Shown piece by piece: positions 1-42,700 of a stretch of DNA of 64,000 nt. The first letter of the stretch is position 1. Each line of letters starts with the position of its first letter. The translations under genes were made by a program, and so were the position numbers. The notes under the pieces are model-generated. The model searched no databases. It saw only the letters and a list, made by a program, of their open reading frames with translations, and had not been told where the DNA came from. Source of the DNA: a virus; IMG/VR virus record IMGVR_UViG_3300045988_165032. The stretch is one strand, 5' to 3'.

Positions 1-958
1 GAAATTGCGGGGATAGAATATAATCAATAAAGACTAAGTTATAATAGCGATATTATAATGGCAAGTAGTAATGTGCTTGGTATAGTAAAACGTTTATTGT
101 AGTTCCAATCCGCAGCCAAGTGTCTCACGGAGACAAAGGTTCAACGACTAGGTTTTATAACCGTAGATTTTATAATCGAAATACCCGTAGGTATTTAGGA
201 GGAATAATTATGGAAAAACAAGAAATTTGGAAAAAAATTTTAATTAACGGTCAAGAAACTTTTTATAGTGTATCTAATTATGGTAATGTGCGTAATGATT
301 CAACTAAAACCTTATTAGGAGGATCAGTTACTAATAATGGTTATCGTATAGTGCATTTACGTTATCGAATAGATAAGAATTGCTCAGTTCATAGATTGGT
401 TATGAAAGCATTTAAACCTTGTGAAGAGATGGATGAATTGCAAGTTAATCATATAGATGGAAATAAATTAAATAATAATATAGATAATTTAGAGTGGTCA
501 ACAGCATTAGAGAATATGCGTCATAGTTACACTAGTAATTTACAACAACATGAAATGAAAGAATGTCATCAATATGATTTAAGTGGCAATTACATTCAGT
601 CTTTTGTAAATGGTTATGAAGCTGCACAAAAGCTTAATTTGGATTACACTAGTATATGGAGATGTATAACAGAACAACAGCAGCATTATAAACAATATCA
701 GTTTAAATCGTATAAAAAAGATAAGATCAACTGTTGGAGTAATTCAAACAAGAAAATAGTTTATGTATATGATAATAATGGTAATTTTATTGACTCTTAT
801 AATTCACAGAAAGAGTGTGCTAAAGCTTTTGGAGTTGCACCTTCATCTATTTGCCGATATTTAAAAGGTATTCGTAAATTAAAAGGTTTTGTTTTTTCTG
901 ATATTCCTTTATAAATATTTGAAGATATAGTCTGATGTATTATATTATATAATATATG
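1..958 (+). mobile_element. Group I self-splicing intron, 5' end cut by the window, carrying an HNH homing endonuclease in the P8 loop
   Basis: Conserved core elements are present. P: AATTGCGGGGA at 2-14. Q: AATCCGCAGCCAAG at 107-120. R: GGTTCAACGACTAGG at 138-152. S: GAAGATATAGTCTGA at 921-935. R and S give the P7 pairing ACUA/UAGU. A terminal G lies at 958, immediately before an exon that starts KTTIATKF. Confidence 0.6.
210..914 (+). CDS. HNH homing endonuclease (HNH_3 plus NUMOD/IENR1 DNA-binding repeats), intron-encoded
   Basis: ATG at 210 is preceded by an AGGAGG RBS at 197-202. HNH motif HRLVMKAF...NHIDGNKLNNNIDNLEW. C-terminal NUMOD-like helix-turn-helix. The ORF-track start at 120 is a GTG that overlaps the intron R element. 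Confidence 0.8.
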   Translation: MEKQEIWKKILINGQETFYSVSNYGNVRNDSTKTLLGGSVTNNGYRIVHLRYRIDKNCSVHRLVMKAFKPCEEMDELQVNHIDGNKLNNNIDNLEWSTALENMRHSYTSNLQQHEMKECHQYDLSGNYIQSFVNGYEAAQKLNLDYTSIWRCITEQQQHYKQYQFKSYKKDKINCWSNSNKKIVYVYDNNGNFIDSYNSQKECAKAFGVAPSSICRYLKGIRKLKGFVFSDIPL

Positions 959-2480: not shown

Positions 2481-3511
2481 GTGGGAAAATATGTAGACAT
2501 TCCATCTATTATTCAAGTTATTGGAGGGATTTATTTAAACCCTAATTTACTAGATGAAGATGGAAAATATTTTTTTAATGAAGAGGATTTTACAGAAGAA
2601 TTTCATAAAATTCTTTTTGGGTCTATATATAATTTACATGAATTAGGTGCTAAAGAAATTTCTATCAATGCGATAGAAGATTATTTAGAGCAAAGACCAA
2701 AAAGTTATGCAGTTTATAAAGCTAATAAGGGACAAGAATATCTTCAAAAATTAAGTAAATCAGTACAATTAGCTGCTTTTGATTTTTATTATAGCAGGAT
2801 GAAAAAGATGACTTTGCTAAGAATGTATCAAAATATAGGAATGGATTTATCATGGTTATATGATATAGACAATATCATGGATGTTAAGAAGAAGCAGGCT
2901 CAAGAGGATTGGTTAGATAATTCATCTATTGAAGATATTGCAGAGATCATTGACAAAAAAATTACTGATATAAGATTAAAGTATGTAGATGATGCTTCTA
3001 ATGGTGCGGAGCTGGCAGGTAATGGAGCATTAGAGCTACTCGAACGCTTAAAAGAGACACCTGAAGCAGGATATCCTCTATTCGGACCCTTGATAAATAC
3101 TGTAACTAGAGGGGCTAGATTAAAGAAATTTTATTTGCGATCAGCCGCAACAGGAGTAGGAAAAACACGAGCGATGATTGCGGATGCATGTTCTATTGCG
3201 TGCGATGAAATTTATGATTCTAAAGAAGGAAAATGGATTCCAAATGGAACTAAAGAACCAACAATCTTTATTTCAACAGAGCAAGAAAAAGATGAAATTC
3301 AAACTATGATAATTGCTTTTTTATCTGACGTAGATGAAGAGCATATTATTTCTGGAGAGTATTATGCTGGAGAATGGGAGCGTGTTATTTACGCAGCAAA
3401 TCTTTTAAAACAATGCCCTCTATATATAGAACAATTACCAGATTTTTCGCTAAAGGATATCGAGAATACTATTAAGCGTGGAGTTAGAGAGTATAATATT
3501 AGGTATGTGTT
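2481..3511 (+). CDS. dnaB: Replicative DnaB-like helicase, 5' exon (3' boundary approximate)
   Basis: GTG start with an AGGAGG RBS. DnaB N-terminal domain. Walker A SAATGVGKT. The exon ends near ...NIRYVF just before the DYxxx (Walker B/H2) motif. The listed ORF to 3578 reads through into the intron. Confidence 0.6.
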
Positions 3512-4526
3512 CAACCCTTTTGTGGGTTTAAAGGACTGTGTAAAACTTTTCCAGCTTACCACTGGGGTTATCGTTTAAGATAGCTAACGGGGAACCCTAA
3601 GTAGAAATATATGGGAATCCCGTGGGAAACTTTGGACAGAAATAATCAAATTTATTTTGACTACTTTCATACACAAATAGAAAATTGTGTGGAAGGAGTT
3701 AAAAATGGCAATAGTTTACTGTTATACTAATCAAATCAATAATAAAAAATATATAGGACAAACAATTAACCCAGAGCAAAGAAAAAATCAGCATCGAAGT
3801 TCTGCTTTCAATCCTTCTGATAAAGATTATGAATCATTAATTCATAGAGCTTTTAGAAAATATGGTTATGAAAATTTTACTTATGAAGTATTAGCTGAAA
3901 TTTATGACAATGATTTTGACTTACTTAATAAGCTAGAACAATATTATATTTTAAAATTTAACTCAAAAGTTCCTAATGGCTATAATGTTTTAGAAGGTGG
4001 AAAGAATTGTGCGAGACCGCATAAGGAAGAGACTAAAGAAAAAATGAGATGGTCTCATGCAGCTCTTACGAAAGAAGAAGTTATCTCTTTGCGAATTGCT
4101 TATAAAGAACAAAAAAGTCCAACTAAAATATTTAAAGAAAAATACGAAGGAAGAATAGAATGGCAATCTTTTTTAAATATCTGGACTGGAAAAAGGTATG
4201 CTACTGTAATGCCAGAAGTTTTTAAAACAAATGATGGTACGGGAAGAAAAACCAAACTTACTGTTGAAATTGTAAAAGCAATTAGGGAAGAAAGAGAAAA
4301 AACAGGGAAAAGCTATGATAAAATAGCAAAACAATATGGAATCTCAAAAGCAACTGTTGCAGATTTGATTAAAAGAAGAACTTGGAAAAATGTCTAAAGA
4401 ACCTGTATCGACTATCCTCGGATCGGAGGAGTAGGACTACTATTGGTACGTAGTTCGAAATGGTTTCCTATGACTTTTGTCGTAGTAAGAGATAGTCAAC
4501 GCCTCTTGAAAGAGAGGACTTACGTG
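3509..4526 (+). mobile_element. Group I intron (td-like IA2) carrying a GIY-YIG homing endonuclease in the P6 loop; boundaries within about 5 nt
   Basis: 5' core CTAACGGGGAACCCTAAGTAGA...GGGAATCCCGTGGGAAAC resembles the T4 td intron P3-P4-P5 region. 3' core TGTATCGACTATCC...GTAAGAGATAGTCAACGCCTCTTGAAAGAGAGGAC gives R/S and the P9 hairpin. It separates two halves of one DnaB reading frame. Confidence 0.55.
3705..4397 (+). CDS. GIY-YIG homing endonuclease (I-TevI-like) with C-terminal NUMOD/IENR1 domain
   Basis: IVYCYTN...KYIGQT...R...E...N motifs. GGAAGGAG RBS before the ATG at 3705. Embedded in the intron. Confidence 0.8.
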   Translation: MAIVYCYTNQINNKKYIGQTINPEQRKNQHRSSAFNPSDKDYESLIHRAFRKYGYENFTYEVLAEIYDNDFDLLNKLEQYYILKFNSKVPNGYNVLEGGKNCARPHKEETKEKMRWSHAALTKEEVISLRIAYKEQKSPTKIFKEKYEGRIEWQSFLNIWTGKRYATVMPEVFKTNDGTGRKTKLTVEIVKAIREEREKTGKSYDKIAKQYGISKATVADLIKRRTWKNV

Positions 4527-5046
4527 CTTCGATTACATCCATACAAGTATGAAAATTTTAAGTGAAGTCTCATCTAAGACTGGAGTAAGAGGATTAAGAG
4601 AAGATAATATCCTTTTTATGATTTCAATTCGCTTAAAAGATATGTGTAACCAGTATGGTATTTTTATTATGACAGCAACTCAGTTAAATAGTAGTTATAT
4701 AACAGCTCAACAATATGATCAGAATCTGTTAAGAGGAGCTAAATCTATTGCGGATAAAATTGATTGTGGTATGATTATGCTTGAAGTTGATAATGATGAT
4801 CGTAACGCTTTAGAAAATGTTTTAGCTCAAGGAGGATTTGAGACGCCTCAAATTAAAATATCTATTTATAAAAATCGTAGAGGTAGATATAAAGGAATTT
4901 TATTGTGGTGTAAGGCGAATAGAGGTACTTGTAAAATTATTCCTATGTTTGCAACTAATTACCAGTATGAGTTGATTCCTATTGAAGATTTAAAAATCAC
5001 TGTTAAGCCAAAAGAAGAAAAAAAGACTGATGTTAGTGCTTTTTAA
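4527..5046 (+). CDS. dnaB: DnaB-like helicase, 3' exon (5' boundary approximate)
   Basis: The in-frame sequence upstream of the listed ATG (from about 4527) encodes FDYIHTSMKIL, the DYLQL-type motif. ISIRLKDMCNQYGIFIMTATQLN matches DnaB ISRSLKxLAKELNVPVIALSQLNR. Confidence 0.6.
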
Positions 5047-5075
5047 TTTAAAAAGAAAGAAAGGAATAAAGAGTC

Positions 5076-6212
5076 TTGTATAAGTATGATAAAGACGAAT
5101 TAAAATTAAATCTTTCAATAGAGCAAGTTTTTGATCTGGTCGCGGAATTGGGTGGAGAGCCACGAATGGAAAGTGGTTTTTTTATTTCTAAAACAATATG
5201 TCATAATCATGCTGGAGAAGGCTCTTATAAATTATATTATTATGACAATACTAAATTATTTAGATGCTATACTGATTGTGGGACTAGCTTTGATATATAT
5301 GAACTTGTAAGAAAGATAAAAAATAATAGTAAGGACTTAAAAAGTTATTATAACAAAGAAGGAAAAGTTTGTTATAGAGAATGGGAACTTTTTGATGCTG
5401 TTGAATTTGTTGCAATATATTATGGATATTCACCAAAAACATTTGATTTTCAAAAGACTCAAGAGAAATTAAAAGATTGGGAAGTTCTTAATAATTATGA
5501 GCAAATAAACAAAGATGAACAAGAGCAAAGAGTAGAATTAAGAATTTTTGATAATAAAATTTTACAGTATTTACCTCGTCCGCGAATAATAACTTGGGAA
5601 CAAGAGGGAATAAAAAAGGAGGTAATGGATCATAGGGGCATCGCCTATGATCCTAAAAACCAAGGTATAGTAATTCCGCATTATGATATAAATAATCAAT
5701 TAGTTGGAATAAGAGAAAGAACTTTAATTAAAGAAGAAGAAAATTTTGGAAAATATCGACCAGCTATTCTAAATGGAGTTATGTATAACCACCCTCTAGG
5801 CTTTAACCTATATAATCTTAATAATAGTAAAGATAATATAAAAATAATTAAAAAAGTTATTGTTTATGAAGGAGAAAAATCTTGTCTTTTATATGCTAGC
5901 TATTTTGGAGAAGAAAATGACATTAGTGTAGCTTGTTGCGGAAGTTCATTAATTACTTATCAAGTTAAATTATTATTATCTTTAGGGGTAAAAGAAATTA
6001 TTGTTGCTTTTGATAAACAGTTTATTACTATTGGTGATGATGAATGGAAGCGTTGGACAAAGAAATTAACAGATATTCATAATAAGTATGGTGCTTATAC
6101 TCAAATATCTTTTATGTTTGATAGATGGGACCTATTGCAATATAAATCAAGCCCAATAGATGAAGGAAAAGATACTTTTATGGAACTATTTAAAAGGAGA
6201 ATTATATTATGA
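5076..6212 (+). CDS. dnaG: DnaG-like DNA primase (CHC2 zinc finger plus TOPRIM)
   Basis: CHNHAGEGSYKLYYYDNTKLFRCYTDCGTSFDIYELV zinc-binding region. VIVYEGEKS TOPRIM acidic motif. Apparent TTG start. Confidence 0.7.
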   Translation: MYKYDKDELKLNLSIEQVFDLVAELGGEPRMESGFFISKTICHNHAGEGSYKLYYYDNTKLFRCYTDCGTSFDIYELVRKIKNNSKDLKSYYNKEGKVCYREWELFDAVEFVAIYYGYSPKTFDFQKTQEKLKDWEVLNNYEQINKDEQEQRVELRIFDNKILQYLPRPRIITWEQEGIKKEVMDHRGIAYDPKNQGIVIPHYDINNQLVGIRERTLIKEEENFGKYRPAILNGVMYNHPLGFNLYNLNNSKDNIKIIKKVIVYEGEKSCLLYASYFGEENDISVACCGSSLITYQVKLLLSLGVKEIIVAFDKQFITIGDDEWKRWTKKLTDIHNKYGAYTQISFMFDRWDLLQYKSSPIDEGKDTFMELFKRRIIL

Positions 6213-6640
6213 GATATAAAGAACAAAAAAGAGACTTGTTTAGCACGGATAGTGATTATTACTTAGCACATTGCATTTCTGCGGATTTTGGGATGGGTAA
6301 GGGAATAGTTGTTGAATTTAATAAAAGGTTTGATATGAAAAATAAATTGAAACAATTATATCCTAATTATCTTCAAACTTGGACAAATGGAGATTGTCTT
6401 AAAGAAGGAAAAGTATTTAATCTTATTACTAAAGAAAGATACTATAGTAAACCAACTTTAGCAACTCTTAAAAATGCGTTAATTAAAATGAAAGAAATTT
6501 GTTTAAAAGAAAATATTACAAAAATTGCAATGCCTAAAATCGGATGTGGATTAGACCAATTAAATTGGAATGATGTTAAACGGTTATTATTTGAAACATT
6601 TGAAAATACAGATATTGAAATTTTTGTTTGTTATTTATAA
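6209..6640 (+). CDS. Small macro-domain (ADP-ribose-binding/hydrolase-like) protein
   Basis: YLAHCISADFGMGKGIVVEF resembles the macro-domain N-x-A-N...GGG ADP-ribose pocket. IAMPKIGCGLDQLNW resembles the IAFPxISTGxyGyP motif. Start overlaps the primase stop (ATGA). Confidence 0.5.
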   Translation: MRYKEQKRDLFSTDSDYYLAHCISADFGMGKGIVVEFNKRFDMKNKLKQLYPNYLQTWTNGDCLKEGKVFNLITKERYYSKPTLATLKNALIKMKEICLKENITKIAMPKIGCGLDQLNWNDVKRLLFETFENTDIEIFVCYL

Positions 6641-6650
6641 GGAGAGTATT

Positions 6651-6881
6651 ATGATTAAAATAATAAGAAAAGGAACAAGAAAAGTTCAAGAATGTAAGGA
6701 ATGTGGATGTTTATTTAGTTATGAAGAAGAAGATGTAAAAACAAAATCAGACTGTTTGGGCATCATGCCAGTTTATTATGAAAAATATATTAATTGTCCT
6801 CAATGTAAAAAAAATATTACTTTGGAGGAAATTAAATCTCCTCAATGTAAAAAAAATATTACTTTGGAGGAAATTAAATGA
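6651..6881 (+). CDS. Small double zinc-ribbon protein with a duplicated C-terminal 14-aa segment
   Basis: AGGAGAG RBS then ATG at 6651. CKEC...CPQC...PQC. The C-terminus CPQCKKNITLEEIKSPQCKKNITLEEIK comes from a 42-nt tandem duplication. Confidence 0.45.
   Translation: MIKIIRKGTRKVQECKECGCLFSYEEEDVKTKSDCLGIMPVYYEKYINCPQCKKNITLEEIKSPQCKKNITLEEIK
6797..6880 (+). repeat. Perfect tandem duplication, 2 x 42 nt, covering the end of one gene and the RBS/start of the next
   Basis: TCCTCAATGTAAAAAAAATATTACTTTGGAGGAAATTAAAT(C/G) occurs twice back to back. Only the second copy ends in ATG, the start of the DHH gene. Confidence 0.9.
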
Positions 6882-8677
6882 AATACCAGTTAATTAAACC
6901 TGTTAATTTAAAATATTCCGCGATAGAGCAAATTTTAACAAATCGTGGAATCAAACATGAAGATATTAAACATTATTTGAATACTACTGATAATGACATT
7001 TATTCGCCTTTAGAGTTAGGAGAAAAGGTATTAAAAGAAGGCGTTGCTGTACTTTTAAAAGCAATTTATAATAATACAAAAACTTTAATCATAGTAGATT
7101 CTGACTGTGATGGTTTTACCAGCAGTGCTGTTTTAATTAACTTTTTATATGACCATTTTCCGCGATATATTCTTTCAAAAGTAGAATGGTTAGTTCATAG
7201 CGGAAAACAACATGGATTAAAGGATTGTAAAGATATAATTCTTGAAAAAGACTATTCTTTAGTTATTTGCCCAGATTCTTCAAGTAACAATTTTGAAGAA
7301 CATAAAATGTTAAACGAGAAAGGAATAGATGTTTTAGTTCTAGATCATCATAAAGCTGATCATATAAGTGAAAATGCTATTGTTATAAATAATCAATTAA
7401 GTGACTATCCAAATAAACAGCTATCTGGTGTTGGTATTGTATGGCAGTTTTGCAGATATATAGATTTAATTATGAAAACCAATTATGCCGAAGATTATGT
7501 AGATTTAGTTGCATTAGGTCTAATGGCAGATATGATGAGTATGACTTCTTTTGAGACTAGGCATTTAATTACAAAGGGATTTAAAAATGAAAATATCCAG
7601 AATCCTTTTATCGTATATATAGCAGATAGAAATAGTTATTCATTAGGAAAAAATATCACTCCTATGGGAGCAGCGTTTTACATTGCACCTTTTGTTAATG
7701 CTATTGCTAGAAGCGGTACTTTAGAAGAAAAACATATTGTTTTTAAATCAATGCTTAAATTTGAAGCTTCAAAAAAAATACCTTCTACAAAAAGGGGACA
7801 TAAAGAAGGAGAAGAAGAGCCATTAGTGCTTCAAGCAATTAGAACTGCAATCAATGTTAAAAATCGACAGACAAAAGCTCAAGATGTAGGAATGACACTC
7901 TTAGAAGATAAAATTGAAAAGAAGCATTTATTAGATCACAAAGTGCTATTGTTTTTACTTAAACCAGGGGAGATTAATTCTAATATAGCTGGATTAATCG
8001 CGAATAAGTTTATGTCAAAGTATCAAAGACCTTGTTGCATTTTAACTCAAGTTGAAGATGAAAATAAGATTTTTTATCAAGGTTCTGCGAGAGGATATGA
8101 GAAAGGTGGAGTTGCTAATTTTAAAAATTTGTGTGAATCCGCACCAGGGGTAGAGTTTGCAGAAGGACATCCAAACGCCTTTGGTTTGAGTTTATATCTA
8201 GGTCAAAAAGGCTATGATGAAGAAGTTTGGGGTGAATCTATACTTTTGTTTTTAGATTATACAGATGAAGTTCTTAAATTCATGTCGTCTGAACCAATTT
8301 ATTTAGTAGATTATATTTATGAAGGAAATCAAGTTAAAGCAGAAAATATTCTTGATATAGCTTCATTAGATGATCTTTGGGGAAAAGATATGGAAGAACC
8401 TTTAGTTGCGGTTAAAGGTTTAACAATTACAAAAGACATGATAACTTTAATGTCACCAGATAAAAAACCTACTTTAAAAATAACTTTACCAAATAATATT
8501 TCTTTAATTAAATTCAATTCTTCTCAAGAGGAATACGAAAAATTATTTTCAGAGGATGGATATGTAGCTATTGATTTGGTAGGTAAATGTAATAAGAATG
8601 AATGGCAAGGATATGTAAATCCTCAAATTTTTATTGAAGATTATGAAATTGTTGATTCTAGTCAATATTACTTTTAA
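6878..8677 (+). CDS. DHH/DHHA1 family phosphoesterase, RecJ-like ssDNA exonuclease
   Basis: Motifs IVDSDCDGFTS, VLVLDHHKADH and GHPNAFG (DHHA1). Confidence 0.65.
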   Translation: MKYQLIKPVNLKYSAIEQILTNRGIKHEDIKHYLNTTDNDIYSPLELGEKVLKEGVAVLLKAIYNNTKTLIIVDSDCDGFTSSAVLINFLYDHFPRYILSKVEWLVHSGKQHGLKDCKDIILEKDYSLVICPDSSSNNFEEHKMLNEKGIDVLVLDHHKADHISENAIVINNQLSDYPNKQLSGVGIVWQFCRYIDLIMKTNYAEDYVDLVALGLMADMMSMTSFETRHLITKGFKNENIQNPFIVYIADRNSYSLGKNITPMGAAFYIAPFVNAIARSGTLEEKHIVFKSMLKFEASKKIPSTKRGHKEGEEEPLVLQAIRTAINVKNRQTKAQDVGMTLLEDKIEKKHLLDHKVLLFLLKPGEINSNIAGLIANKFMSKYQRPCCILTQVEDENKIFYQGSARGYEKGGVANFKNLCESAPGVEFAEGHPNAFGLSLYLGQKGYDEEVWGESILLFLDYTDEVLKFMSSEPIYLVDYIYEGNQVKAENILDIASLDDLWGKDMEEPLVAVKGLTITKDMITLMSPDKKPTLKITLPNNISLIKFNSSQEEYEKLFSEDGYVAIDLVGKCNKNEWQGYVNPQIFIEDYEIVDSSQYYF

Positions 8678-8749
8678 CTACCGGGCAGTCTACGCCCGAT
8701 TCTGAGAACTGAAAGTGGTTTTGGATTTTTTCAGACCAAAAATTATTTT

Positions 8750-8778
8750 TTGATTTTTCTTTAAAAAAATGTTATAAT
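8750..8778 (+). promoter_or_regulatory. Promoter: TTGATT, 17-nt spacer, TGTTATAAT
   Basis: Consensus-like -35/-10 with extended TG, 40 nt upstream of the helicase gene. Confidence 0.4.
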
Positions 8779-8820
8779 ATAAGTAAAAGTATATATTTAT
8801 AAGATAAGGAAAGGTAAAAT

Positions 8821-10005
8821 ATGATTTTAACAAAGAAACAAGAAGAAGGATTACATATTGCAATAGAAAGATATAAGAATAAGGAAAAGTACACTGTCAT
8901 TGGAGGTTACGCGGGAGTAGGCAAGAGTAGTTTAGTAAAATTTATAATTGAAGCTTTAGATATTGATATAAATAAAGTGTGTTATACTGCTTTTACTGGG
9001 AAAGCCGCAGAGGTTTTAAAGAAAAAAGGAAATCATAACGTTTGTACTTTACATAAACTTTTATATGACCATTTTCCAAAGCCAGAAGGCGGTTTCTTTA
9101 GAAAACCAAAAAAAGATATTCCATATTCAGTTGTAGTGGTTGATGAAATTTCCATGGCACCTAAGTCATTGATGGAATTACTAGCATCTCATAAATGTCA
9201 TATTATTTGCTTAGGAGATCCGTTTCAGCTCCCACCAATTAACAAAGATGAAGATAATCATTTATTAGACCATCCGCATATATTCTTAGATGAAATTATG
9301 CGGCAGGCGGAAGATTCTGAAATTATTCAACTGTCTATGAAAATTAGAAAAAGAGAACCAATTTCTTTATTTAATGGAAATAATGTTAAGGTCTTATCAA
9401 AAGAAACTTTAAATACAGGGATGCTTACTTGGGCGGATCAAATTTTGGTAGGAACAAATGCGACTCGTCAAAATATCAATAACCAGATGAGAGCTTTATT
9501 GGGGCGGGGATCACTCCCAGAAGATGGAGATAAAGTTATCTGTTTAAGAAATTATTGGGATGATATTAATGAAAATGGAGATTCATTAGTAAATGGAACT
9601 ATTGGCTACTTAAAGAATCCTTTTGAAACTTTTTATACAGTTCCGCGATTTATAAAAACAGATAAACGTAAATTAGAGATGATTAGCTCAGATTTTATTA
9701 TTGATAAAAATACTTCATTTAATTATGTTCTTGTAGATAAACAACTAATTTTAAATGGAGAAAGATGCTGTGATTGGAAAGTAGCTTATCAATTAGGGAA
9801 ATTAAAAGATAAAATCGGAGATGTAGTTCCTAAAGAATTCGCATACGCGTACGCTATTACGGGACATAAGTCACAAGGAAGTGAATGGGATAAAGTCTTA
9901 GTTATTGAGGAAGCTTTTCCTTTTGACAAGACAGAACATGCACGTTGGCTATATACTACAGTTACACGGGCAAGTGAAAAATTAGTTTTAATAAGGAATG
10001 AGTAA
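8821..10005 (+). CDS. RecD/Dda/Pif1-like superfamily 1 DNA helicase
   Basis: Walker A GGYAGVGKSS. Walker B VVVDEISM. C-terminal ITGHKSQGSEWDKVLVI (UvrD_C_2-like). Confidence 0.7.
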   Translation: MILTKKQEEGLHIAIERYKNKEKYTVIGGYAGVGKSSLVKFIIEALDIDINKVCYTAFTGKAAEVLKKKGNHNVCTLHKLLYDHFPKPEGGFFRKPKKDIPYSVVVVDEISMAPKSLMELLASHKCHIICLGDPFQLPPINKDEDNHLLDHPHIFLDEIMRQAEDSEIIQLSMKIRKREPISLFNGNNVKVLSKETLNTGMLTWADQILVGTNATRQNINNQMRALLGRGSLPEDGDKVICLRNYWDDINENGDSLVNGTIGYLKNPFETFYTVPRFIKTDKRKLEMISSDFIIDKNTSFNYVLVDKQLILNGERCCDWKVAYQLGKLKDKIGDVVPKEFAYAYAITGHKSQGSEWDKVLVIEEAFPFDKTEHARWLYTTVTRASEKLVLIRNE

Positions 10006-10008
10006 AAT

Positions 10009-10176
10009 ATGACAATAACTTATTATGATAGATATGCAGTTACTCCAAAAAGATGTAATAAATGTAATAGGCTTTTTCTTTTTGAAGGATATAATCTTTT
10101 CTATAGAGAGCTTGGTAGGGACTCTATAGAAATAATTAAATGTAAAAAATGCATTGACAACAATAAAAAAATATAA
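10009..10176 (+). CDS. Small zinc-ribbon protein, not in the ORF track
   Basis: 55-aa ORF MTITYYDRYAVTPKRCNKCNRLFLFEGY...KCKKCIDNNKKI with two CxxC pairs, in the gap between the helicase and dnaE. Confidence 0.3.
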   Translation: MTITYYDRYAVTPKRCNKCNRLFLFEGYNLFYRELGRDSIEIIKCKKCIDNNKKI

Positions 10177-10237
10177 TATAATAATTTTATAAATATTATA
10201 AAGAGCAAGTAGAATAAGTAAATGAAAGGAAAATAAA

Positions 10238-12759
10238 ATGAGTAATCGTTTTGAAACTCATTCTCATACTGAGTATAGTAATCTTCGTTTATTAGATTGT
10301 ATTAATAGACCAAAAGATTTAATTCAAAGAGCGATTGATTTAGGCTTATCTGGAATTGCTATTACAGACCATGATTGTCTATCTTCTCATATGGAAATAA
10401 ATATATATGCTCAGGAATTAAAAGAGAAAAATCCTAACTTTAAAATTGCATTAGGGAATGAAATTTATTTATGTCCATCAAGAGATAAAGGACAAAAATA
10501 TTTTCATTTTATTTTAATTGCTAAAAATAAAATTGGATATAGAGCATTAAAAGAATTATCTTCAAGAGCTTGGATGAATTCTTTTTTTGATAGAGGCATG
10601 GAAAGAGTAGTTACTTTATATGACGACTTAGCGGAAATTGTAAAAAAATATCCAAATAGTTTAATTGCAACAACAGCATGCTTGGGTGGAGAATTGAGCA
10701 CTCTAACTAAACAATTAATTTTAGCAGAACAAACAAAAGATGCTGAATCCGTGGAAGATGCTCATAACAGAATAGTTAATTTTATTTTATGGAATAAGTC
10801 TTTATTTGGACAAGATTTCTATATTGAGTGTGCTCCAGGACAAAGTAAAGATCAAGTAATGGTAAATAAGAGACTTTTATCTATTGCTAGATGTTTTAAT
10901 ATAAAAATGGTACTTGGCACAGATGCTCATTATTTAAAAAAAGAAGATAGATTTGTTCATAAATCTTACTTAAATTCTAAGGGTGGAGAACGAGAAGTTG
11001 ATGAGTTTTATGAATATAGTTACTTGCAATCAGAAGAAGAAATAATTGAAAATTTAAAGCCTTCTGAGTTAAATTATGAAGAATTATGTAATAATTCTTT
11101 AGAAATTTATTCTAAAATTGAAAATTATAATTTAAAACATAAACAAACAATTCCAAAAGTTAAAGTTAGAGATTACCCTAAAGATAACTCTTTAAAGGAA
11201 TATCCTACTTTACATAAATTATTATTAAGTGATGATATTCAAGACAGATATTGGGTTAATACTTGTTTGCAAAAACTCCAAGAAATAAATAAATATAACA
11301 ATACTTATTTATCTCGATTAGAAGAAGAAGCTGATATTAAAGATACTATTAGTAAAAAACTTGAAACTAATATGTTTAGTTATCCTAATACTTTACAACA
11401 TTATGTTGATTTATTTTGGGATTGCGGAAGTATGGTAGGTGCAGGAAGAGGAAGTTCTTGCTCTGGATTAAATCATTACTTAATGGGAATTACTCAACTA
11501 GATCCGATTGAATGGGAGCTTCCTTTCTGGAGATATTTAAATAAAGAGCGTATAGAGCTTGGAGATATAGATTTAGATTTAAGTCCAAGTAAAAGACCTT
11601 TAATTTTAAAGAAAATAAAGGAAGAACGCGGAAAAAATTTTAAAAAAGATATTGATGTTTTATCTCGAAAAAATTTAGGATGTACGTTGATAGCCACTTT
11701 TGGAACTGAAGGTACTCGATCAACTATTTTAACCGCTTGTCGCGGATATAGAAGTGAAGAGTATCCAGACGGAATTGATGTTGACACTGCTCAATTTTTA
11801 TCTTCTTTAATTCCAAGTGAAAGAGGTTTTTTATGGTCTTTATCAGATGCCATTAATGGTAACCCAGATAAAGATAGAAAGCCTATTAAGATGTTTACTA
11901 ATGAGGTAGAAAAATATCCTGGCTTATTAGATATTATGATTGCTATTGAAGGGTTAGTAAACAAAAGGAGTTCTCATGCTTCTGGAGTAATTCTTTTTGA
12001 TGAAGACCCATATGAATTTGGATGTTTTATGCGGACTCCTAAAGGAGAAATTATTACGCAATGGGATCTTCATATGTGCGAAGCAGCAGGTATGACAAAA
12101 TATGACTTCTTAGTAACTGAAGTCCAGGATAAATTAGCAGAAACAATTAAATTACTACAGGCTAATAATGAAATTGAATCAGATTTATCTTTAAAAGAAG
12201 TGTATGAAAAATATTTTCATCCAAGTGTTTTACCTATCGAAGATAAAAAATGTTGGAAAGCACTGCAAAACAACTCAGTTTTAAATATTTTTCAATTTGA
12301 TAGCGATGTAGGCAGTCAGGCTGCAAAAAAAATTAAGCCAGCCTCAATAATTGAAATGTCAGATGCTAATGGATTAATGAGACTTATGACTAGTGAAAAA
12401 GGTCAAGAAACGCCAATGGAAAAATATGTAAGATATAAAAAAAATATTGATCTTTGGTATCAAGAAATGAGAAGAGAGGGGTTATCTCCTCAAGAGATGA
12501 AAACATTAGAACCTTATTTCTTAAAGTCTTATGGTGTTCCGCCAAGTCAAGAACAATTAATGAGTATGTTAATGGATAAGGATATTTGCGGTTTTAAGTT
12601 ATCTGAAGCCAACACCGCGAGAAAAATTGTTGGTAAAAAACAAATGAGTAAAATTCCAGAATTGAAAAAGAAGGTTATTGAACAAGCTAAAAGAAAAGAA
12701 CTCGGAGACTATGTATGGAAATATGGCATAGGTCCGCAGATGGGATATAGCTTTAGCAT
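10238..12759 (+). CDS. dnaE: DNA polymerase III alpha (DnaE-type), 5' exon
   Basis: N-terminal PHP domain HSHTEYSNLRLLDCI...IAITDHDCL. Polymerase core. Exon ends ...GYSFSI. Last exon nucleotide is U12759. Confidence 0.7.
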
Positions 12760-13985
12760 TGTGTGAATGGTGCTTACACACTTAACCACTTATCAGTGGG
12801 GTAATTAAAACATTTACATATTTGGCAAATATGGTTTTAATTGCTAACGAGGGTTAAATCTCGTGACAAATTTCTTTAATAGAGGTATAGTATTTTTCAG
12901 TTATACATGAGAATAGTAAAACAATGTATAAGGAGAATATTATGTACTATATTTATAAATTTACAAATAAAACAAATGGTAAAATTTATATCGGACAAAC
13001 TAATAATGTTCAAAAAAGAAAAAATGGACATAAAAGTGAGTCTTTTAATGAAAAAGCTTCTGGCTATAATTTGCCATTTCACGCAGCCATAAGAAAATAT
13101 GGTTGGGATAATTTTAATTTTGATATTCTTGAAGAGATTGCTGATGGAGAATCTCAAGAATATATTGACGAAAGAGAAATTTATTTTATTCAATATTATC
13201 ATTCTTTAAAAGATGAAAATGGATATAATATTACTTTAGGCGGACAAGGATATAAAAGAAAACCTTTAACGTATGAAGAAAAATTAAACCGATCTAAACT
13301 CTTTAAAAAAGAAGAAATTATTGATATTCAAAATCGTCTAATGAATGATGAAGAATATGATGATATTGAAAAAATTTATTTTCCTAAGTTAAAAAGAACG
13401 TTTTTAGTTAATATAAATACTGGAACAAATTATTTTAATGAAGAGTTTGATTATCCTTTAAAGAAAAATTCTAAAAGCCGCTTTTCTCAAAAAGAAATTA
13501 GAGAAATAAAAGATAGAATTAAAAGCGGAGAAAAATATAAAACAATTCAAGAAGATTTTGGAATTAAATCAGCTGGATTTTTATCTATGATAAATACAGG
13601 AAAATATTTTTATAGTGATAAGGATAACTACCCTCTTTGTGATAAAGGTGGTAATAAAGCTAAAAATGAAATCTGGATTCAAGGTATTATAAAAGATATT
13701 TTAGAAACAGATTTATCTTTAAAAGATATCGCAAAAAAATGGAATAAAAGCTATGCAACAATTAAAAATATTAACGCAGGACGTTCTCATAAAAAAGAAA
13801 AATATAAATACCCTCTTAGAGATAATAAATAAATCTATTAAAAGAAAAATGTTGTATCGACTATCCCTGGTTAGACGGGGAGTACTGAAACTATTGATAC
13901 GTTTTGGGAAATAGTGTGCAGACAAGAGAAAAGCCAAAATCTCACTACAACGTCTGTAAAAAATAGTCAGTAATTTTAAATTATG
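12760..13985 (+). mobile_element. Group I intron (paralogous to the dnaB intron) carrying a GIY-YIG homing endonuclease
   Basis: P1: exon AGCAU (12755-12759) pairs with GUGCU (12770-12774), with a U.G pair at the splice site. 3' core TGTATCGACTATCCCTGG matches the dnaB intron. Terminal G at 13985. Excision joins GYSFSI to IHALAYSFIGFQT, restoring the DnaE F-N-K-S-H-A-x-A-Y block length. Confidence 0.65.
12942..13832 (+). CDS. GIY-YIG homing endonuclease (I-TevI-like) with NUMOD/IENR1 repeats
   Basis: YYIYKFTNKTNGKIYIGQT...R...E...N. AGGAG RBS. Related to the dnaB-intron endonuclease. Confidence 0.8.
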   Translation: MYYIYKFTNKTNGKIYIGQTNNVQKRKNGHKSESFNEKASGYNLPFHAAIRKYGWDNFNFDILEEIADGESQEYIDEREIYFIQYYHSLKDENGYNITLGGQGYKRKPLTYEEKLNRSKLFKKEEIIDIQNRLMNDEEYDDIEKIYFPKLKRTFLVNINTGTNYFNEEFDYPLKKNSKSRFSQKEIREIKDRIKSGEKYKTIQEDFGIKSAGFLSMINTGKYFYSDKDNYPLCDKGGNKAKNEIWIQGIIKDILETDLSLKDIAKKWNKSYATIKNINAGRSHKKEKYKYPLRDNK

Positions 13986-15387
13986 CATACATGCCCTGGC
14001 TTACTCTTTCATAGGATTTCAAACTATATACATAGCCACAAGATGGAATCCTATCTATTGGAATACCGCGTGTTTAATTGTAAATAGTGGAGCCTTAGAA
14101 GAAGATAATATTGAAAATGAAGAAGAAACAGAAGAAAGTAAAAAGAAAGAAAAATCTACGGATTATAGTAAAATAGCTAAGGCTATTGGAGATATTTTAT
14201 CAAGAGGAATAAAAATTTCTTTAGTTGATATAAATAAATCTGACTATAGCTTTAAGCCAGATGCTGAAAACAACGAAATTCTTTTTGGAATGAAAGCATT
14301 GAGTAATGTAGGTGCACCAATTATTGAGCAGATTTTTTCTGGTAGACCATATAAAAGCATTAAAGACTTTATGATAAGATGTCCTTTAAATAAATCTGCA
14401 ATGATTTCCTTAATAAAGAGCGGAGCTTTTGATAAACTGGAATTAGAATGGGCAAAAGAATTAAATGTTGAACCAAGAGTGCTTGTAATGATATATTATC
14501 TGTCTGTTGTTAGTGAACCAAAAAAGAAATTAACGCTACAAAACTTTAATGGTTTAATTCAAAAAGACTTAATTCCACCTTCTTTAGATAGTATGAAAAG
14601 ATTATTTTTCTTTAATAAGTATCTAAAAACTGAGAAAAAAGTTGGAAAATATTATGTCTTTGATGATGCTTGTGAAAAATTCTACAATCAAAGATACGAT
14701 ATGGAAGACCTTGAAGTGATAAACGGATGCGTTTGTATTTTACAAAACAAATGGGATAAAAAGTATCAAAAAGGCATGGATAGAGCTAGAGATTGGCTTA
14801 AAGAGAATCAACAGACAGTATTAAAAGAATTTAATGAGGCTTTATTTCTTGACTCTTGGAATAAATATGCTAAAGGAAATATTTCCGCGTGGGAAATGGA
14901 AAGCTTATGTTTTTATTATCATCCACATGAATTAATAAATATTGATACTTTAAAGTATGGAATTTCAGATTTTTCTAAATTACCCGAAGAGCCTGTTGTA
15001 GATTATTTTTTCAAAAGAAATGGAAAAGAAATCCCTATTTATAAGACTTATAAAATCATTGGCACTGTAATCAGTAAAAATGATGCTCGTTCTTCAATAT
15101 CATTATTAACAACTTCTGGAGTTGTTAATGTAAAATTTACAAAAGATTACTTTGCTATGTTTGGGAGACAAATTTCTGAAAAGCAAGAAGATGGAACTAA
15201 AAAAGTTATGGAAAAAGGCTGGTTTCAAAGAGGAACAAAAGTAATGTGTACTGGGTTTAGGCGTGGAGATACATTTCAGACTAAATCGTATAAACATACC
15301 CCTACCCATCAGCTCTACAAGATTATTGACGTCAATGGTTCAGATATGAAACTAGAGCATGTTAGATATGGTATGGAAGGAGAATAA
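13986..15387 (+). CDS. dnaE: DNA polymerase III alpha (DnaE-type), 3' exon
   Basis: Upstream in-frame extension HALAYSFIGFQTIYIATRWNPIYW matches the DnaE HAxAYxLxxYQTAYLKAHYP block. HhH region ALSNVGAPIIEQIF. C-terminal OB-like region. Confidence 0.7.
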
Positions 15388-22011: not shown

Positions 22012-23078
22012 CATTTTGTTATCATAAAGGCTCTTTATCCTCTATTTCTTATAGTTTCCTATAAGTTCAGACTATATCTTCATCCTATTTATATAGGAGT
22101 TCGGCACTCGTGTTGGTATTATTGTTTGTTGTAACTCAACCATTAGTCGTTGAACCTTCTAATTACTTTTATCAACTTTCATTAGCTTGGCTGCTGATTA
22201 ACATATTTACAAATATGACCTTTATAAGGTCTATTGGCTTTTAAAGCTTTGCATAAAGGAGATGTATCCTTTACTCCTAAAGCATTAGCAGCTTCTCTCA
22301 AAGAAGAATATTCAATTCCATCTATTAAAACTGCTTTTGAACTTGTTTTATGTATAGTATATTTTTTTTGTTCTTCATCTATATATTTACATGGATTCCC
22401 TTTAGTATCATATCCTCTTTTACACCAATTTGATATAGTATTTTCCCATACTCCAATTTCTTTAGCTGCATCTATTACTCCGTCATATCTAATTCCATTA
22501 ATAAGAACAGGACGTTTTTTCTTGTCAGCAACTTTTTGAGCTATTTTAGAATCTTTCATGGGATTTTTTTCTGACATTCTTTTTCTTTGAAAATCAGTTT
22601 TCATTGGGTTATACTCTGACATATATTGTCTCATTTCTTCTGTCCATTCTTTAGAGTATCCTCCATATCCACCATTAATTAAATTACATTTGCAAAATCC
22701 TTGTTGTCGATATTGTTTAGTTAATTCTGCTTCATATTTAAAAGCTTCTTCCTCTGTTTCAAAAAATTTAACTATTCTTACATCAACTTTATTTTTTGAA
22801 ATATAATCTTTAAAATACTTATTCCTATCTGAAATATTTTTATATCTATTATTACATCCTTTTCCGACATAAAATATTTCATTAGTTTCTACATTATACC
22901 ATTCATATACATAAAATTTATTCATTTTAATTCTCCTTATTTTCTTGATATTAAATATTAAAATAAAGGAGAATAATCTATCTTTCTTTGACCAATTTTT
23001 CTATTTGCAAACTTAGTATCCCAGCAATTCACCGAATATTTTACTAATAGTTACCTATTAGGCTGCCATGATATGTTT
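22012..23078 (-). mobile_element. Group I intron on the minus strand (same core family as intron 1) with a GIY-YIG endonuclease in the P6 region
   Basis: On the minus strand: P1 exon GCUGCU|, then loop AAACAUAUCAU, then IGS GGCAGC (U.G at the splice site). P: GAATTGCTGGGA (rc 23017-23031). Q: AATCAGCAGCCAAG (rc 22186-22200). R: GGTTCAACGACTA (rc 22143-22157). S: GAAGATATAGTCTGA (rc 22066-22080). P9 hairpin CTTATAG-GAAA-CTATAAG. Terminal G at 22012. P10 is UCAU paired with GUGA. Confidence 0.6.
22182..22925 (-). CDS. GIY-YIG family homing endonuclease (variant VYEW...YVGKG) with two NUMOD/IENR1-like helix-turn-helix repeats
   Basis: FYVYEWYNVETNEIFYVGKG...R...E(EAFKYEAEL)...N(LINGG). C-terminal IRYDGVIDAAKEIGV and IEYSSLREAANALGV repeats. 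AAGGAG RBS. The 3' end overlaps the intron Q element. Confidence 0.75.
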   Translation of the reverse strand: MNKFYVYEWYNVETNEIFYVGKGCNNRYKNISDRNKYFKDYISKNKVDVRIVKFFETEEEAFKYEAELTKQYRQQGFCKCNLINGGYGGYSKEWTEEMRQYMSEYNPMKTDFQRKRMSEKNPMKDSKIAQKVADKKKRPVLINGIRYDGVIDAAKEIGVWENTISNWCKRGYDTKGNPCKYIDEEQKKYTIHKTSSKAVLIDGIEYSSLREAANALGVKDTSPLCKALKANRPYKGHICKYVNQQPS

Positions 23079-39784: not shown

Positions 39785-42700
39785 CTAACGTTTAGTGTCA
39801 TATGCATGTTGACTTGCATAATTTACTAAATTTTTAAATGCCTCTTCAATTTCTCCAGAGTTTTGAACATTTGGGAAAGAAGCTTCTATTTGAACTTTCT
39901 GGTCAACAGTTAAATCCTGAGACGCGGAAATTCCGCTCAAAGAAGTAGTAGTCTTAGTTAACAATCCAACTAATCTATTCATCATAGATGCATTAATTGT
40001 ATCTAAAACACTATCTAAACTTCTAACAACATTCATAGCAGATAAGAAATTTTTAGTATCTTCTTTATTTAAGACTAACTCTTTCTGATGAAGAATACCA
40101 ACTTTTCCTTCATTTCCACTCCATGCTCCAGTATATCCACCAGTATCAAATTTCTTGATATCATCTTTTGTAAGCCATCCAAACGGACCATCGTTACTCT
40201 GAACATGAATAGGCTTTTTAGCTCCCTTTTCAATCTGAGTAATCGTACCAGGTTTATTCTGTCCAGCTCCTCTATTTCCTGAAGGTTCAGCTCCTTCAGA
40301 CGTATAATAATATCTTTTTCCTTTTAGTAATTTAACCTTATCTCCAACTTTAAATTTCTTACTACCTTCGTCCATGTCAACTGCACTTGCTGGAGTATCA
40401 GAAGGATCCGCTTTGACATCAACGATTGTATTCTTTCCTCCACCTTTATTACTTTTGTTATTCTTTTTATTATCTCCGCTTTTGCCATTTCCAGCAGCAT
40501 CTTTATCTGCTTCTTCTCTCGCTTCCTTATCCTTCTGTTGCTTTAATTTATTAGCTTCTGTAACCGCAGAAATAGCAGCTGCCGCAACACCTCTATAAGC
40601 TTCTTCTAGCTGTTTCACTTCTTGAAGTACATCTTGAACAGCTTCTAATTGAGCCTTGTATTTTTCAAGTAACTTATCATTTTCCTCAAGAAGTTCTTTA
40701 GCTTTTTGGATATTCATATCATATCCTTCAGCAATCTTGTTAAAATCTACCCCTGAACGCTCGCTTGTCTCACTCAAGTTATTTCTATAAGTAAGTAAAG
40801 CTTCATCTAGCTGTTTAAAGGCATTTTCACAAGTTGGAATAAAACCGCCTTCTCCCGCAAATTTATCAGCCATTTGCTGAACGCCTGAATTCCATTGCGG
40901 AATCATACTCTCCATTAAGATTCTCTTTTCCTCATCTGACATTCCTTGGAAGTTAGCTACATCGGTATTATATTTTTTAGCCAATTCTTGGAAAGTTGTA
41001 TCCTGGAGATTCTGCTTAACTTGCTCATTTTGTTCAACTAAGTTATTTATTATTTCGCCATATTGTTCTGCTAATAACTTTTTCTTTTCTTCTCTTTCTT
41101 CATCTGCAAGAGTGGTATCTGAATACAGTTCTAATAATTTCTGTTGGAACTCAGAATAAGTGCTATAGATTTCATCTAAATTACTCTTATACTTGTCTTT
41201 ATCCAAATTATAGAGAGAATTTTGAGCTTCTAATAGCTCTTGCTGTGCTTGAGCTATACTATCTTCATCAGAAACATATTGATAACTATAATTTCCTTGA
41301 GAATCACGTCTCAATCTCATTTTTGACTTATTTTTTTGAGCATCTTGTAAAGCAATTTCTTTTAAGGCTATTTCATATAACGCATTAGCACGATCTACAT
41401 CATATTGAGTTAACTTTTCTTTAGCTTTAAGCATTTCAATCTGCTCATTCATCAAGTTATTTAATTTCTTTTGAGCAGATAAGCTACTTGTATTATCAAT
41501 AGAATCTAAATACTTATTTTGAAGTTTTTGAATTTCAAAAGAAGAATTAATACTATCCAAATACATATCTGCATTTTTGTTAATTAAATCCCATTGATCT
41601 TTAACATAATCTAATCCGCTTCCGTTAGTTAATCTCTTGTTAATGTCTTCAAAGATTTTATTTATAGTATTTTTATATTCTTCAATAACTTCTTCAATAG
41701 AACTCTTAACTTTTGAGTTTAAATCAGTAACCGCTTTTTCATAATTAGCTTTATATTCTTTCCAAGCTTTGGAATCTTTTTCTTCGTTATCCATTCTCTG
41801 TTTCCAGAATTCTACTTGTTTTCTTGCAAAGTCTAAATTGTCATTATTATTTTTTCTTTGCATCTCATAATATTTAGCTAATTGAGAATAAGCTTTATCG
41901 CCATAGATTAAACCAATTACATCTTTATCATGGTCAATCAAATCAGATATAAATTCATATTGCTCTGATTGCTCATCTAGTTTTTCTTGAGCTTTATCTA
42001 TTGCACTTAGGTAAGTCTCTTCAATATCCTTTGATATTTGTGCATAGTTTTCTAACGCGGTCTCCGCATTTTTTTCATATTTCTCTAAGTCTTCATAAGC
42101 TTTAGCAAGATTATCTCCATAAATAGTTGATTTTCCACCAGCTTTCATAATTTCAATTTCACTCTTAGTTTTATTAAGCTGATCTGTTAAAGCTTGAATC
42201 TCACCTGTACCATCTGGCTTTACATATGAACTAAAATTAGATAGTAAAGCATTAACTTGACCCGAAAAATCGTCATCTTTTATACCATCAATAACTTTCT
42301 TTTTAAAAGCATTAAAATCTCTCTCTGCTTGAGCCGTATCAAGAGCTAAGTCAACTTTTAAGGTAAACTTCTTAATCCTTACTTCTGTAGCCTTATCTTC
42401 TGCCTCTTGCTGTTGCTTTTTTATTTCTTTTTCATCTGCTTTTAAGTCTTCATATTTGCTAAGAATCTTTTTAAAATTCTCATAATCCTTTTTAGCATCT
42501 TCAACCGTTTGCTTATATTTCTTTTGCTCTGCTTTGGACATGCCATTATATTTAGTAATCATTTTATTGACATTATCCAGCTTGGTTTTCATAATATTAA
42601 AATAATTGGTTATATTTCCATCTGCATCAAAAGTAACCCCTTCTTGTTTTAATGCAGATTTATATGCTCCTGACTGAATTTCGGCTACTTCTATCTTTTC

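Follow-up and report, generated by a model that had tools for sequence, protein, structure and literature searches.

A TARG1-type macrodomain gene in the replication operon of an SPbeta-related phage, possibly directed against DNA ADP-ribosylation

The 64,000-nucleotide stretch of viral DNA analysed here (IMG/VR record IMGVR_UViG_3300045988_165032; hereafter the window), which represents 64 kb of a roughly 145-kb genome, carries among its replication genes an open reading frame (ORF) for a small macrodomain protein of 143 amino acids (aa). Judged by its sequence and its modelled structure, this protein is of the TARG1/OARD1 type, with an intact predicted active site (the K75/D116 dyad), and by analogy with characterized relatives it is probably an active, standalone ADP-ribosyl hydrolase. 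The gene behaves as a conditionally useful accessory gene, as is expected, for example, of a counter-defence gene, and it appears likely that the phage uses an active ADP-ribosyl hydrolase in this way, as an accessory counter-defence or anti-ADP-ribosylation gene. The more specific reading, to which we assign a probability of about 0.45 on the analogy with known systems, is that the protein would remove DarT2-type thymine ADP-ribose from the single-stranded DNA (ssDNA) of the phage.

The original prediction for this DNA had proposed a macro domain with an ADP-ribose pocket and had asked for a profile search. This search gave a match to the Pfam Macro family (PF01661) above the gathering cut-off (E 8.2e-6, 26.2 vs. 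22 bits), and the protein is therefore a macro domain. While the fold and the pocket were borne out, the assignment can be made more exactly, because the protein is of the TARG1/OARD1 type and not a generic or DarG-type macrodomain. When all PDB sequences were searched with phmmer, the best match was human TARG1 (also OARD1 or C6orf130) over the full length (E 3.8e-26, 94.9 bits), followed by DarG macrodomains (E 3e-7 and 2e-3; 33.5 bits), and BLASTP showed 41% identity to human TARG1 over 135 residues. A profile built from 34 homologues and compared with PDB again placed TARG1 (E 3e-33, 117.9 bits) ahead of the DarG macrodomains (35.4 bits). The AlphaFold2 model obtained from the alignment of the 34 homologues had a mean predicted local distance difference test (pLDDT) value of 96.2, and the top eight Foldseek matches of this model in PDB were all TARG1 (template modelling score, TM, 0.87; 41% identity). 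The next matches were the DarG macrodomains of M. tuberculosis (TM 0.87) and T. aquaticus (TM 0.83), with BT1257 and yeast Poa1p trailing at TM ~0.75. Hidden Markov models for DarG match the macro part, covering residues 29-140 of the protein: the PADLOC DarG model with E 2.2e-16, and the NCBIfam model antitoxin_DarG with E 7e-15, at 55 bits against a cut-off of 250 and over profile positions 26-145 of 338 only. No further domain is present on the 143-aa protein.

The residues of the active site point in the same direction. The pattern TKx(30,35)Px[IL]GxGxD, taken from Garcia-Saura 2019 (PMC6397177) as diagnostic of TARG1-like proteins, occurs at residues 74-116 of the phage protein, at residues 83-125 of human TARG1 and in 34 of the 34 aligned homologues, and is unmatched in PhiKZ AdfM and B. 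thuringiensis DarG. Residues H21, C22, S24, T74, K75, G114 and D116 align to TARG1 H32, C33, S35, T83, K84, G123 and D125, respectively, and most of the pocket and catalytic residues (K75 and D116 included) are invariant across the 34-sequence alignment, S24 being nearly so. The two motifs quoted in the original prediction, which had also reported the 143-aa ORF, were both found in the translation of this gene, CISADFGMGKG as residues 22-32 and IAMPKIGCGLDQLNW as residues 106-120.

Comparison with related loci (denoted here by L numbers) shows that the gene occupies a variable slot between the genes for a primase and a RecJ-like exonuclease. The three closest relatives (L023, L024 and L025) are 95-96% identical to the window at the nucleotide level across the region. 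In L023 and L024, the macro gene is 5'-truncated and frame-broken, its start codon and first ~70 codons having been lost, and in L025 window position 6210 is joined straight to 6877, with both the macro gene and the small Zn-ribbon ORF that follows it absent. In 29 further loci retrieved with the primase as bait an intact macro gene was found in none, L023 and L024 retaining the remnant just described, and the primase-RecJ junction is either tight or holds other, unrelated small ORFs. The wider gaps in L020 and L021 result from GIY-YIG insertions within RecJ, and the slot of L020 also holds a 243-aa ORF. In phi3T, Clostridioides phage LIBA2945 and Staphylococcus phage PhiSepi-HH3, the primase gene abuts RecJ with nothing between.

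The comparison of the window with L003 gave a different picture. A tract of ~750 bp (~5890-6645) is 95-100% identical between the two, while its flanks are ~60-75% identical. The shared tract takes in the 3'-terminal ~320 nt of the primase gene together with the entire macro gene, and stops at the macro stop codon. The synonymous divergence (dS) between the window and L003 is 0.067 for the macro gene, 0.95 for the primase and 1.56 for RecJ. Among macro copies that are 72-97% identical, the ratio of nonsynonymous to synonymous divergence (dN/dS) is 0.11-0.29. Considering this purifying dN/dS together with the decayed or empty slots of the near relatives and the bounded tract shared with L003, we conclude that the gene is functional and selected, but dispensable for replication; the same comparisons imply that phages acquire it by homologous recombination and lose it by decay within short evolutionary times.

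The Zn-ribbon ORF shares the variable slot, but is not strictly tied to the macro gene: it occurs with the macro gene in L003-L007 and without an intact one in L023/L024 and L035/L036, and is absent in L025. The C-terminus of its product contains a 14-aa tandem duplication (PQCKKNITLEEIK twice), which is present in L023/L024 and missing from the 62-aa homologues of L003-L007.

At the upstream border of the slot, the ATG of the macro gene (6209-6211) shares bases with the TGA (6210-6212) of the preceding ORF, the junction DNA being TTATTATGAGAT (longer stretch AAAAGGAGAATTATATTATGAGAT), and an AGGAG sequence lies 9 nt 5' of this ATG. The ATGA overlap with the primase gene, on which the original prediction had built, can thus be read directly from the DNA, and the 4-nt overlap is also called in the macro-bearing relatives L003-L008. 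The preceding ORF was assigned to a primase from its matches to PHROG 47 ('DNA primase', E 2.8e-31) and NCBIfam PRK08624 (E 2.5e-77), accompanied by a weak dnaG TOPRIM match; it had no Pfam match, and in tblastn it was 33-38% identical to annotated primases of Firmicute phages, including a phi3T protein annotated as similar to SPbeta YorJ.

The gene also lies, as had been predicted, within a replication module, which Pfam and PHROG matches identify by DnaB, primase, RecJ, helicase and PolIII alpha. The neighbouring genes encode an HNH endonuclease, an AAA_24 protein (YorG-like), a YorH-like protein, DnaB, the primase, the macro protein, the Zn-ribbon protein, the RecJ-like DHH protein and an SF1 helicase, along with PolIII alpha, guanylate kinase, NrdD/NrdG, dUTPase and RuvC. 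The gene order is that of SPbeta (yorF-yorG-yorH-yorI(DnaB)-yorJ(primase)-yorK(RecJ)...yorL(PolIII alpha)), and from these sequence comparisons the phage is related to Bacillus phage SPbeta and has an SPbeta-type replication operon. The SPbeta-type gene order, together with a tape-measure-like protein of 2,843 aa, suggests that it is a siphovirus. Megablast of positions 5000-9000 against 50,697 phage records returned no match, and the phage is therefore without a close cultured relative.

Terminator-like sites on the + strand are absent from 3567 to 10500; from the hairpin at 1882-1909 onwards, that hairpin is followed before 10500 only by a weak stem of 6 pairs (3549-3567), which lies in the intervening region of DnaB. 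A promoter-like site with a perfect consensus occurs only at 10154-10182, ahead of PolIII alpha. It should be noted that the promoter scan returned 64 sites vs. 59 expected from shuffled sequence, i.e. no better than chance, and that the operon structure therefore rests on gene spacing and on the absence of terminators. On these grounds, the macro gene is probably co-transcribed with the replication operon. Any role of the ATGA overlap beyond co-expression may be conceived, but is conjectural.

The possible function of the protein has to be considered in the light of what is known about ADP-ribosylation of DNA. In the DarTG defence, phage DNA is ADP-ribosylated and its replication blocked (summarised in PMC13309987 and PMC11481870). 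DarT-made thymine-ADP-ribose on ssDNA is removed by TARG1, whose rescue of E. coli from DarT depends on K84 (PMC8501950), and the reversal of thymine-ADP-ribose (thymine-ADPr) has been described as an activity that unites the ALC1-like class, to which TARG1, DarG and SCO6735 belong (PMC9411070). The biochemical plausibility of an anti-DarT role is strengthened because the family of the phage protein is TARG1, for which this very activity is published (PMC8501950). Counter-defence of this kind is known in phages: AdfM (PhiKZ gp104) removes DarT2 marks and is needed for growth on DarTG2 hosts, as reported in 2026 (PMC13309987), and phage NADAR enzymes likewise counter DarT1 (PMC11825919). In the mechanism that we envisage, the macro protein would be made along with helicase, primase and RecJ while phage ssDNA is exposed. 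A host ADP-ribosyltransferase (ART) of the DarT2 type would mark thymines on this ssDNA, the macro protein would strip the ADP-ribose from them, and polymerase and primase could then proceed, allowing replication to continue. Both DNA as the substrate and DarT2 as the opponent are inferred by analogy with the systems just mentioned. Of the original reading, the part that stands is that of an intact-pocket macrodomain in a replication operon, with which it is probably co-transcribed; adjacency to the primase, however, is not a family-wide feature, and the gene is a dispensable recent insert.

A number of observations weigh against a role on phage DNA. TARG1-type enzymes are promiscuous and process O-acetyl-ADP-ribose, Glu/Asp-linked mono- and poly-ADPr and phosphate-linked nucleic-acid ends (PMC6397177, PMC8501950), and the fold alone therefore does not select DNA as the substrate. 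According to a large survey, phage domains that process ADPr mostly target soluble ADPr derivatives (PMC9503650). Identity to the validated AdfM is 23%, with a pairwise E of 1e-5. In other phages (Fusobacterium, Lactobacillus and other large ones), the homologues lie outside replication modules, and the place next to the primase may simply be where recombination was able to put the cassette. Finally, no named Clostridia were among the top 120 DarT matches. The same survey found a macro domain in only ~1% of siphoviruses (PMC9503650); should the SPbeta-like phage be a siphovirus, the present case would be an unusual one in terms of taxonomy.

The anti-DarT role could be extended to a replisome-coupled repair factor that would clear thymine-ADP-ribose from the lagging strand ahead of the primase, and that would be at the same time a self-spreading cassette among diverged SPbeta-like gut phages, spreading by recombination for which the conserved 3'-terminal part of the primase gene serves as the anchor. 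We regard this extension as quite improbable; if it were true, the protein would be the first anti-DarT factor of the TARG1 subclass and also the first from a siphovirus that infects Gram-positive anaerobes.

If the target is not DNA, the protein might be a broad de-ADP-ribosylase acting on protein or RNA and reversing other host ARTs (CmdTAC-type mRNA modification, polymorphic ART toxins or bacterial PARPs). Proteins that carry mono- or poly-ADPr are efficiently cleared of it by human and Fusobacterium TARG1, and bacterial TARG1 genes adjoin immunity-protein genes of polymorphic toxin systems (PMC6397177). In addition, mRNA ADP-ribosylation is an established defence (PMC11618068), and the occurrence of homologues near a bacterial-type PARG in 165-kb phage contigs suggests a general anti-ADP-ribosylation toolkit. 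We nevertheless consider a protein or RNA target rather unlikely, given that activity on thymine-ADPr has been demonstrated for the ALC1-like class including TARG1 (PMC9411070, PMC8501950), that the gene is placed, and presumably expressed, with replication proteins, and that no phage macro of the ALC1-like class has been reported to counter a protein or RNA ART defence. Processing of soluble NAD metabolites is also conceivable, the protein being in this case an O-acetyl-ADP-ribose deacetylase or an ADPR-1''-phosphate phosphatase (Adpp-like), engaged in a race between NAD+ depletion and reconstitution or in RNA repair. PHROG 335 is labelled 'phosphatase', the survey of Iyer et al. favours soluble substrates for phage macros (PMC9503650), and one homologue lies several genes from RlaP, a CCA-adding enzyme and YpsA. 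Moreover, Poa1p is among the structural matches (TM ~0.75), and the Poa1p-like phage Adpp dephosphorylates ADPR-1P and thereby defeats aRES (bioRxiv 10.64898/2026.01.28.702374). However, Poa1p is only 15-20% identical to the phage protein and is missed by sequence search, as compared with 41% for TARG1; the Lys/Asp dyad is the signature of the TARG1 glycohydrolases; and Adpp works in NARP1 operons (with Adps and Namat), whereas the neighbours here are primase, RecJ and helicases. A metabolite as the substrate therefore seems unlikely.

It appears very improbable that the protein serves to balance an ART encoded by the phage itself, so as to restrain or undo the modification that the phage would make on host or phage targets. 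The 30 Pfam-scanned ORFs of the window and the flanks of the related loci showed no ART domain, and L023 and L025 lost the gene without visible loss of a partner; on the other hand, ARTs are known from phages such as T4 and are found together with macros in large phages (PMC9503650), and the window shows only 64 kb of the genome. There is least of all to be said for a neutral passenger, i.e. a gene of host origin that came into the slot by hitch-hiking and is useless to the phage. Such a gene could be pseudogenised or absent in the closest relatives, as this one is, and assorted unrelated small ORFs indeed fill the slot in other relatives. A useless gene would hardly show, however, the dN/dS of 0.11-0.29 over copies 72-97% identical, the conservation of the catalytic and ligand-binding residues, the recent spread of an intact copy between diverged phages, or the strong Shine-Dalgarno sequence and conserved primase overlap, and we give this explanation a very slight probability indeed. 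Removal of DarT2-type ADP-ribose from phage DNA thus remains the reading that we prefer.

The protein search returned 2,325 homologues. Copies that are 72-99% identical were found in phage contigs of up to 145 kb, in the same slot and with the same 4-nt primase overlap. Copies of ~65% identity are standalone proteins of 147-148 aa: one is in a housekeeping context on a 452-kb bacterial contig and one is named Clostridium sp., while the others are on unrelated large phage-like contigs, near DNA methylases, a bacterial-type PARG, or RlaP, a CCA-adding enzyme and YpsA. Judged by sequence, the protein is nearest to free-standing macro proteins encoded by Clostridia-like bacteria and by other large phages of the gut. 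Most bacterial TARG1s come from Firmicutes and Fusobacteria (PMC6397177), a range that fits the 65%-identical Clostridia-like homologues. Among cultured phages, homologues of 40-47% identity are found in Fusobacterium phages Fnu1/FNU2/FNU3, Bacillus phage G and Lactobacillus phages LP65 and LpeD; the Fusobacterium phage copies are annotated as 'O-acetyl-ADP-ribose deacetylase 1-like' or 'phosphatase', and in FNU3 and LP65 the macro gene lies among hypothetical early genes, with no primase beside it. A conserved primase-macro pair as a feature of the whole family was therefore rejected, considering that the contexts in FNU3, LP65, L009 and L013/L015 differ and that the SPbeta-type slot is empty elsewhere.

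Some of these neighbourhoods deserve a separate mention. In two large phage-like contigs (L013, 10231-11016; L015, 11860-12444), a ~65% identical macro homologue lies a few kb from a bacterial-type PARG gene, and in L009 (1-4052) another is several genes from RlaP, a CCA-adding enzyme, LemA and YpsA (SLOG); this hints at wider ADP-ribose or RNA-repair toolkits. The closest structural matches among viral proteins in BFVD include macro modules from RNA viruses of eukaryotes, among them Kadipiro virus VP8 (40% identity) and several insect virga/negev-like polyproteins, so that TARG1-type macros are common to phages and eukaryotic viruses.

As for the host, we infer a low-GC anaerobe of the human or animal gut from the base composition (the window has 30.5% GC), the presence of NrdD/NrdG, the sample names and the Clostridia-like homologues. 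No tRNA genes were found in the window, and a scan of genome contigs with the primase gave only three contigs of metagenome-assembled genomes, with 46-63% identity and unreliable bin taxonomy. Within Bacillota, DarT2-DarG2 operons exist, one of them on a plasmid of B. thuringiensis, and named DarT homologues are from Bacillus, Geobacillus and others. The plasmid (345 kb; L049, 2276-3948) encodes DarT (DUF4433, 210 aa) and DarG (341 aa), a canonical pair whose neighbours are xerS and a gene for a Cry8Ea-family toxin, and the two are labelled by PGAP only as 'DUF4433' and 'macro domain-containing'.

The positions of the features discussed above are collected in Table 1.

Table 1. Features of the macro gene and of its surroundings in the window.
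Feature	Position	Strand	Basis
TARG1/OARD1-type macrodomain gene, 143 aa	6209-6640	+	Pfam Macro, phmmer, BLASTP, AlphaFold2, Foldseek, TARG1 pattern
K75 codon, equivalent of catalytic TARG1 K84 / DarG K80	6431-6433	+	Alignments; invariant in 34-sequence alignment; roles from PMC8501950, PMC6397177
D116 codon (in GCGLD), equivalent of catalytic TARG1 D125	6554-6556	+	Alignments; invariant in 34-sequence alignment
Shine-Dalgarno AGGAG (6195-6199) and ATGA start/stop overlap (6209-6212)	6195-6212	+	Read from sequence
YorJ/DnaG-type primase	5076-6212	+	PHROG 47, NCBIfam PRK08624, tblastn
Recently exchanged tract, last ~320 nt of primase and whole macro gene	5890-6645	+	Identity to L003; dS
Small Zn-ribbon ORF, 76 aa	6651-6881	+	Own AGGAG and ATG; PHROG 2834 (function unknown)
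RecJ-like ssDNA exonuclease, YorK homologue	6878-8677	+	Pfam DHH, DHHA1, RecJ_OB; PHROG 2484 (E 1.8e-142)

Several genes of the replication operon are interrupted. The DnaB-like helicase gene (2481-5046) is split by an insert of ~1 kb (~3525-4527) carrying a GIY-YIG ORF (3687-4397), the intact 514-aa DnaB of L003 aligning to window positions 2487-3524 and 4528-5043. PolIII alpha (10238-15387) is apparently split as well, with the PHP, NTPase and finger domains at 10238-12766 and the HHH_6 C-terminal part at 14290-15387; a GIY-YIG ORF (12924-13832) lies between the two parts, and relatives encode a single protein of 1,312-1,315 aa. Rfam group I intron models were unmatched in both the DnaB and the PolIII alpha inserts. 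An HNH/NUMOD endonuclease is located at the start of the window (120-914), and a third GIY-YIG-like ORF (22182-22925, - strand) gave a weak, sub-threshold match. In the relatives, a GIY-YIG ORF interrupts the RecJ-like gene in L020 (7901-10847) and L021 (7266-8725), and L023, which is 96% identical to the window, has an extra DnaB-primase insert of ~1 kb (~4966-6002) that is absent from the window. Homing endonucleases seem to invade nearly every gene of the replication operon in one lineage or another. Elsewhere in the window, the 2,843-aa protein (39785-48316, - strand) has a PhageMin_Tail domain of the tape-measure type, and its length implies that the tail is unusually long; proteins of 1,537 and 906 aa beside it gave no Pfam match.

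The idea of an anti-DarT macrodomain is already published: phage TARG1-like macros have been annotated (PHROG 335, Fnu1 records), the anti-DarT activity of TARG1 is in the literature, and AdfM was demonstrated in 2026. What would be gained here is consequently breadth, and not a new principle. An anti-DarT macrodomain has so far been shown only for the DarG2-like AdfM of nucleus-forming jumbo phages with Gram-negative hosts (PMC13309987); if the present protein strips DarT2-type ADP-ribose from phage DNA, the strategy would extend to the TARG1 subclass and to large temperate-type phages of gut Firmicutes. The facts most useful for testing are the three-state series and the sharply bounded recombination tract, and the series of intact, pseudogene and absent states in near-identical phages could be used to find gut hosts that carry the matching defence. 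The practical value is modest: the enzyme is a candidate for engineering the host range of phages, and it offers biochemists a TARG1 orthologue of bacterial scale.

Among the known systems with which the protein can be compared, Adpp (a Poa1p-like ADPR-1''-phosphate phosphatase of NARP1-AP operons; bioRxiv 10.64898/2026.01.28.702374) is also a small counter-defence macrodomain of phages, but it acts on a soluble metabolite and sits in Adps-Namat operons. The label was rejected for the present protein because NARP1-type genes are absent from its flanks and because the match to Poa1p (TM 0.73-0.77 and 15-20% identity by Foldseek, no match in phmmer of PDB) is far weaker than that to TARG1. The name AdfB is borne by two unlike anti-DarT factors, both of them phage-borne counters to DarTG: the T4-like AdfB (PMC11825919) has a NADAR fold rather than a macro fold and targets the guanine-ADPr made by DarT1, while the AdfB of ICP1 (Gp145, 77 aa; PMC11481870) is not an enzyme, but binds DarT directly as an antitoxin mimic.

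The DarG2 macrodomains of T. aquaticus and M. tuberculosis (5M31, 5M3E, 5M3I) belong to the same ALC1-like subclass (TM 0.83-0.87) and keep the catalytic Lys, but are only 18-25% identical to the phage protein, which has Ser24 where DarG has Asn22. The loop of the phage protein is GCGLD, whereas that of DarG and AdfM is two residues longer, GC(G/A)NGGLD (GCGNGGLD in DarG). Furthermore, DarG has ~340 aa, with ~190 more residues that bind DarT. Assignment as a DarG was rejected in view of the missing C-terminal DarT-binding domain, of the missing DarT neighbour and of the score of 55 vs. 250 bits; a Pfam scan of 30 window ORFs and of the related loci did not show DUF4433 (PF14487)/DarT. AdfM (PhiKZ gp104 and its chimallivirus homologues; PMC13309987) is likewise an orphan phage macrodomain of the same class with the catalytic Lys kept. 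It differs in subclass, being DarG2-like with an Asn/Lys site where the phage macro has Ser24 as in TARG1, and it is acidic (isoelectric point 5.1, as compared with 8.9). AdfM belongs to jumbo myoviruses of Gram-negatives and is imported into their phage nucleus, while the present protein is from an SPbeta-like phage of presumed low-GC gut anaerobes.

The closest likeness is to TARG1 itself (PDB 4J5Q/R/S) and to FmTARG1 of Fusobacterium mortiferum, which are alike in being standalone proteins of ~145-150 aa with the Lys/Asp dyad, the loop residues and the diagnostic pattern, the likeness of human TARG1 to the phage macro amounting to 41% identity and a TM of 0.87. The difference is in the setting: cellular TARG1s are found in DNA-damage and telomere biology or in polymorphic-toxin immunity contexts, whereas here the protein is encoded by a phage in a replication operon. 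The distinction of this gene is that it is of the TARG1-type rather than the DarG2-type subclass, and that it occurs in an under-studied group of phages.

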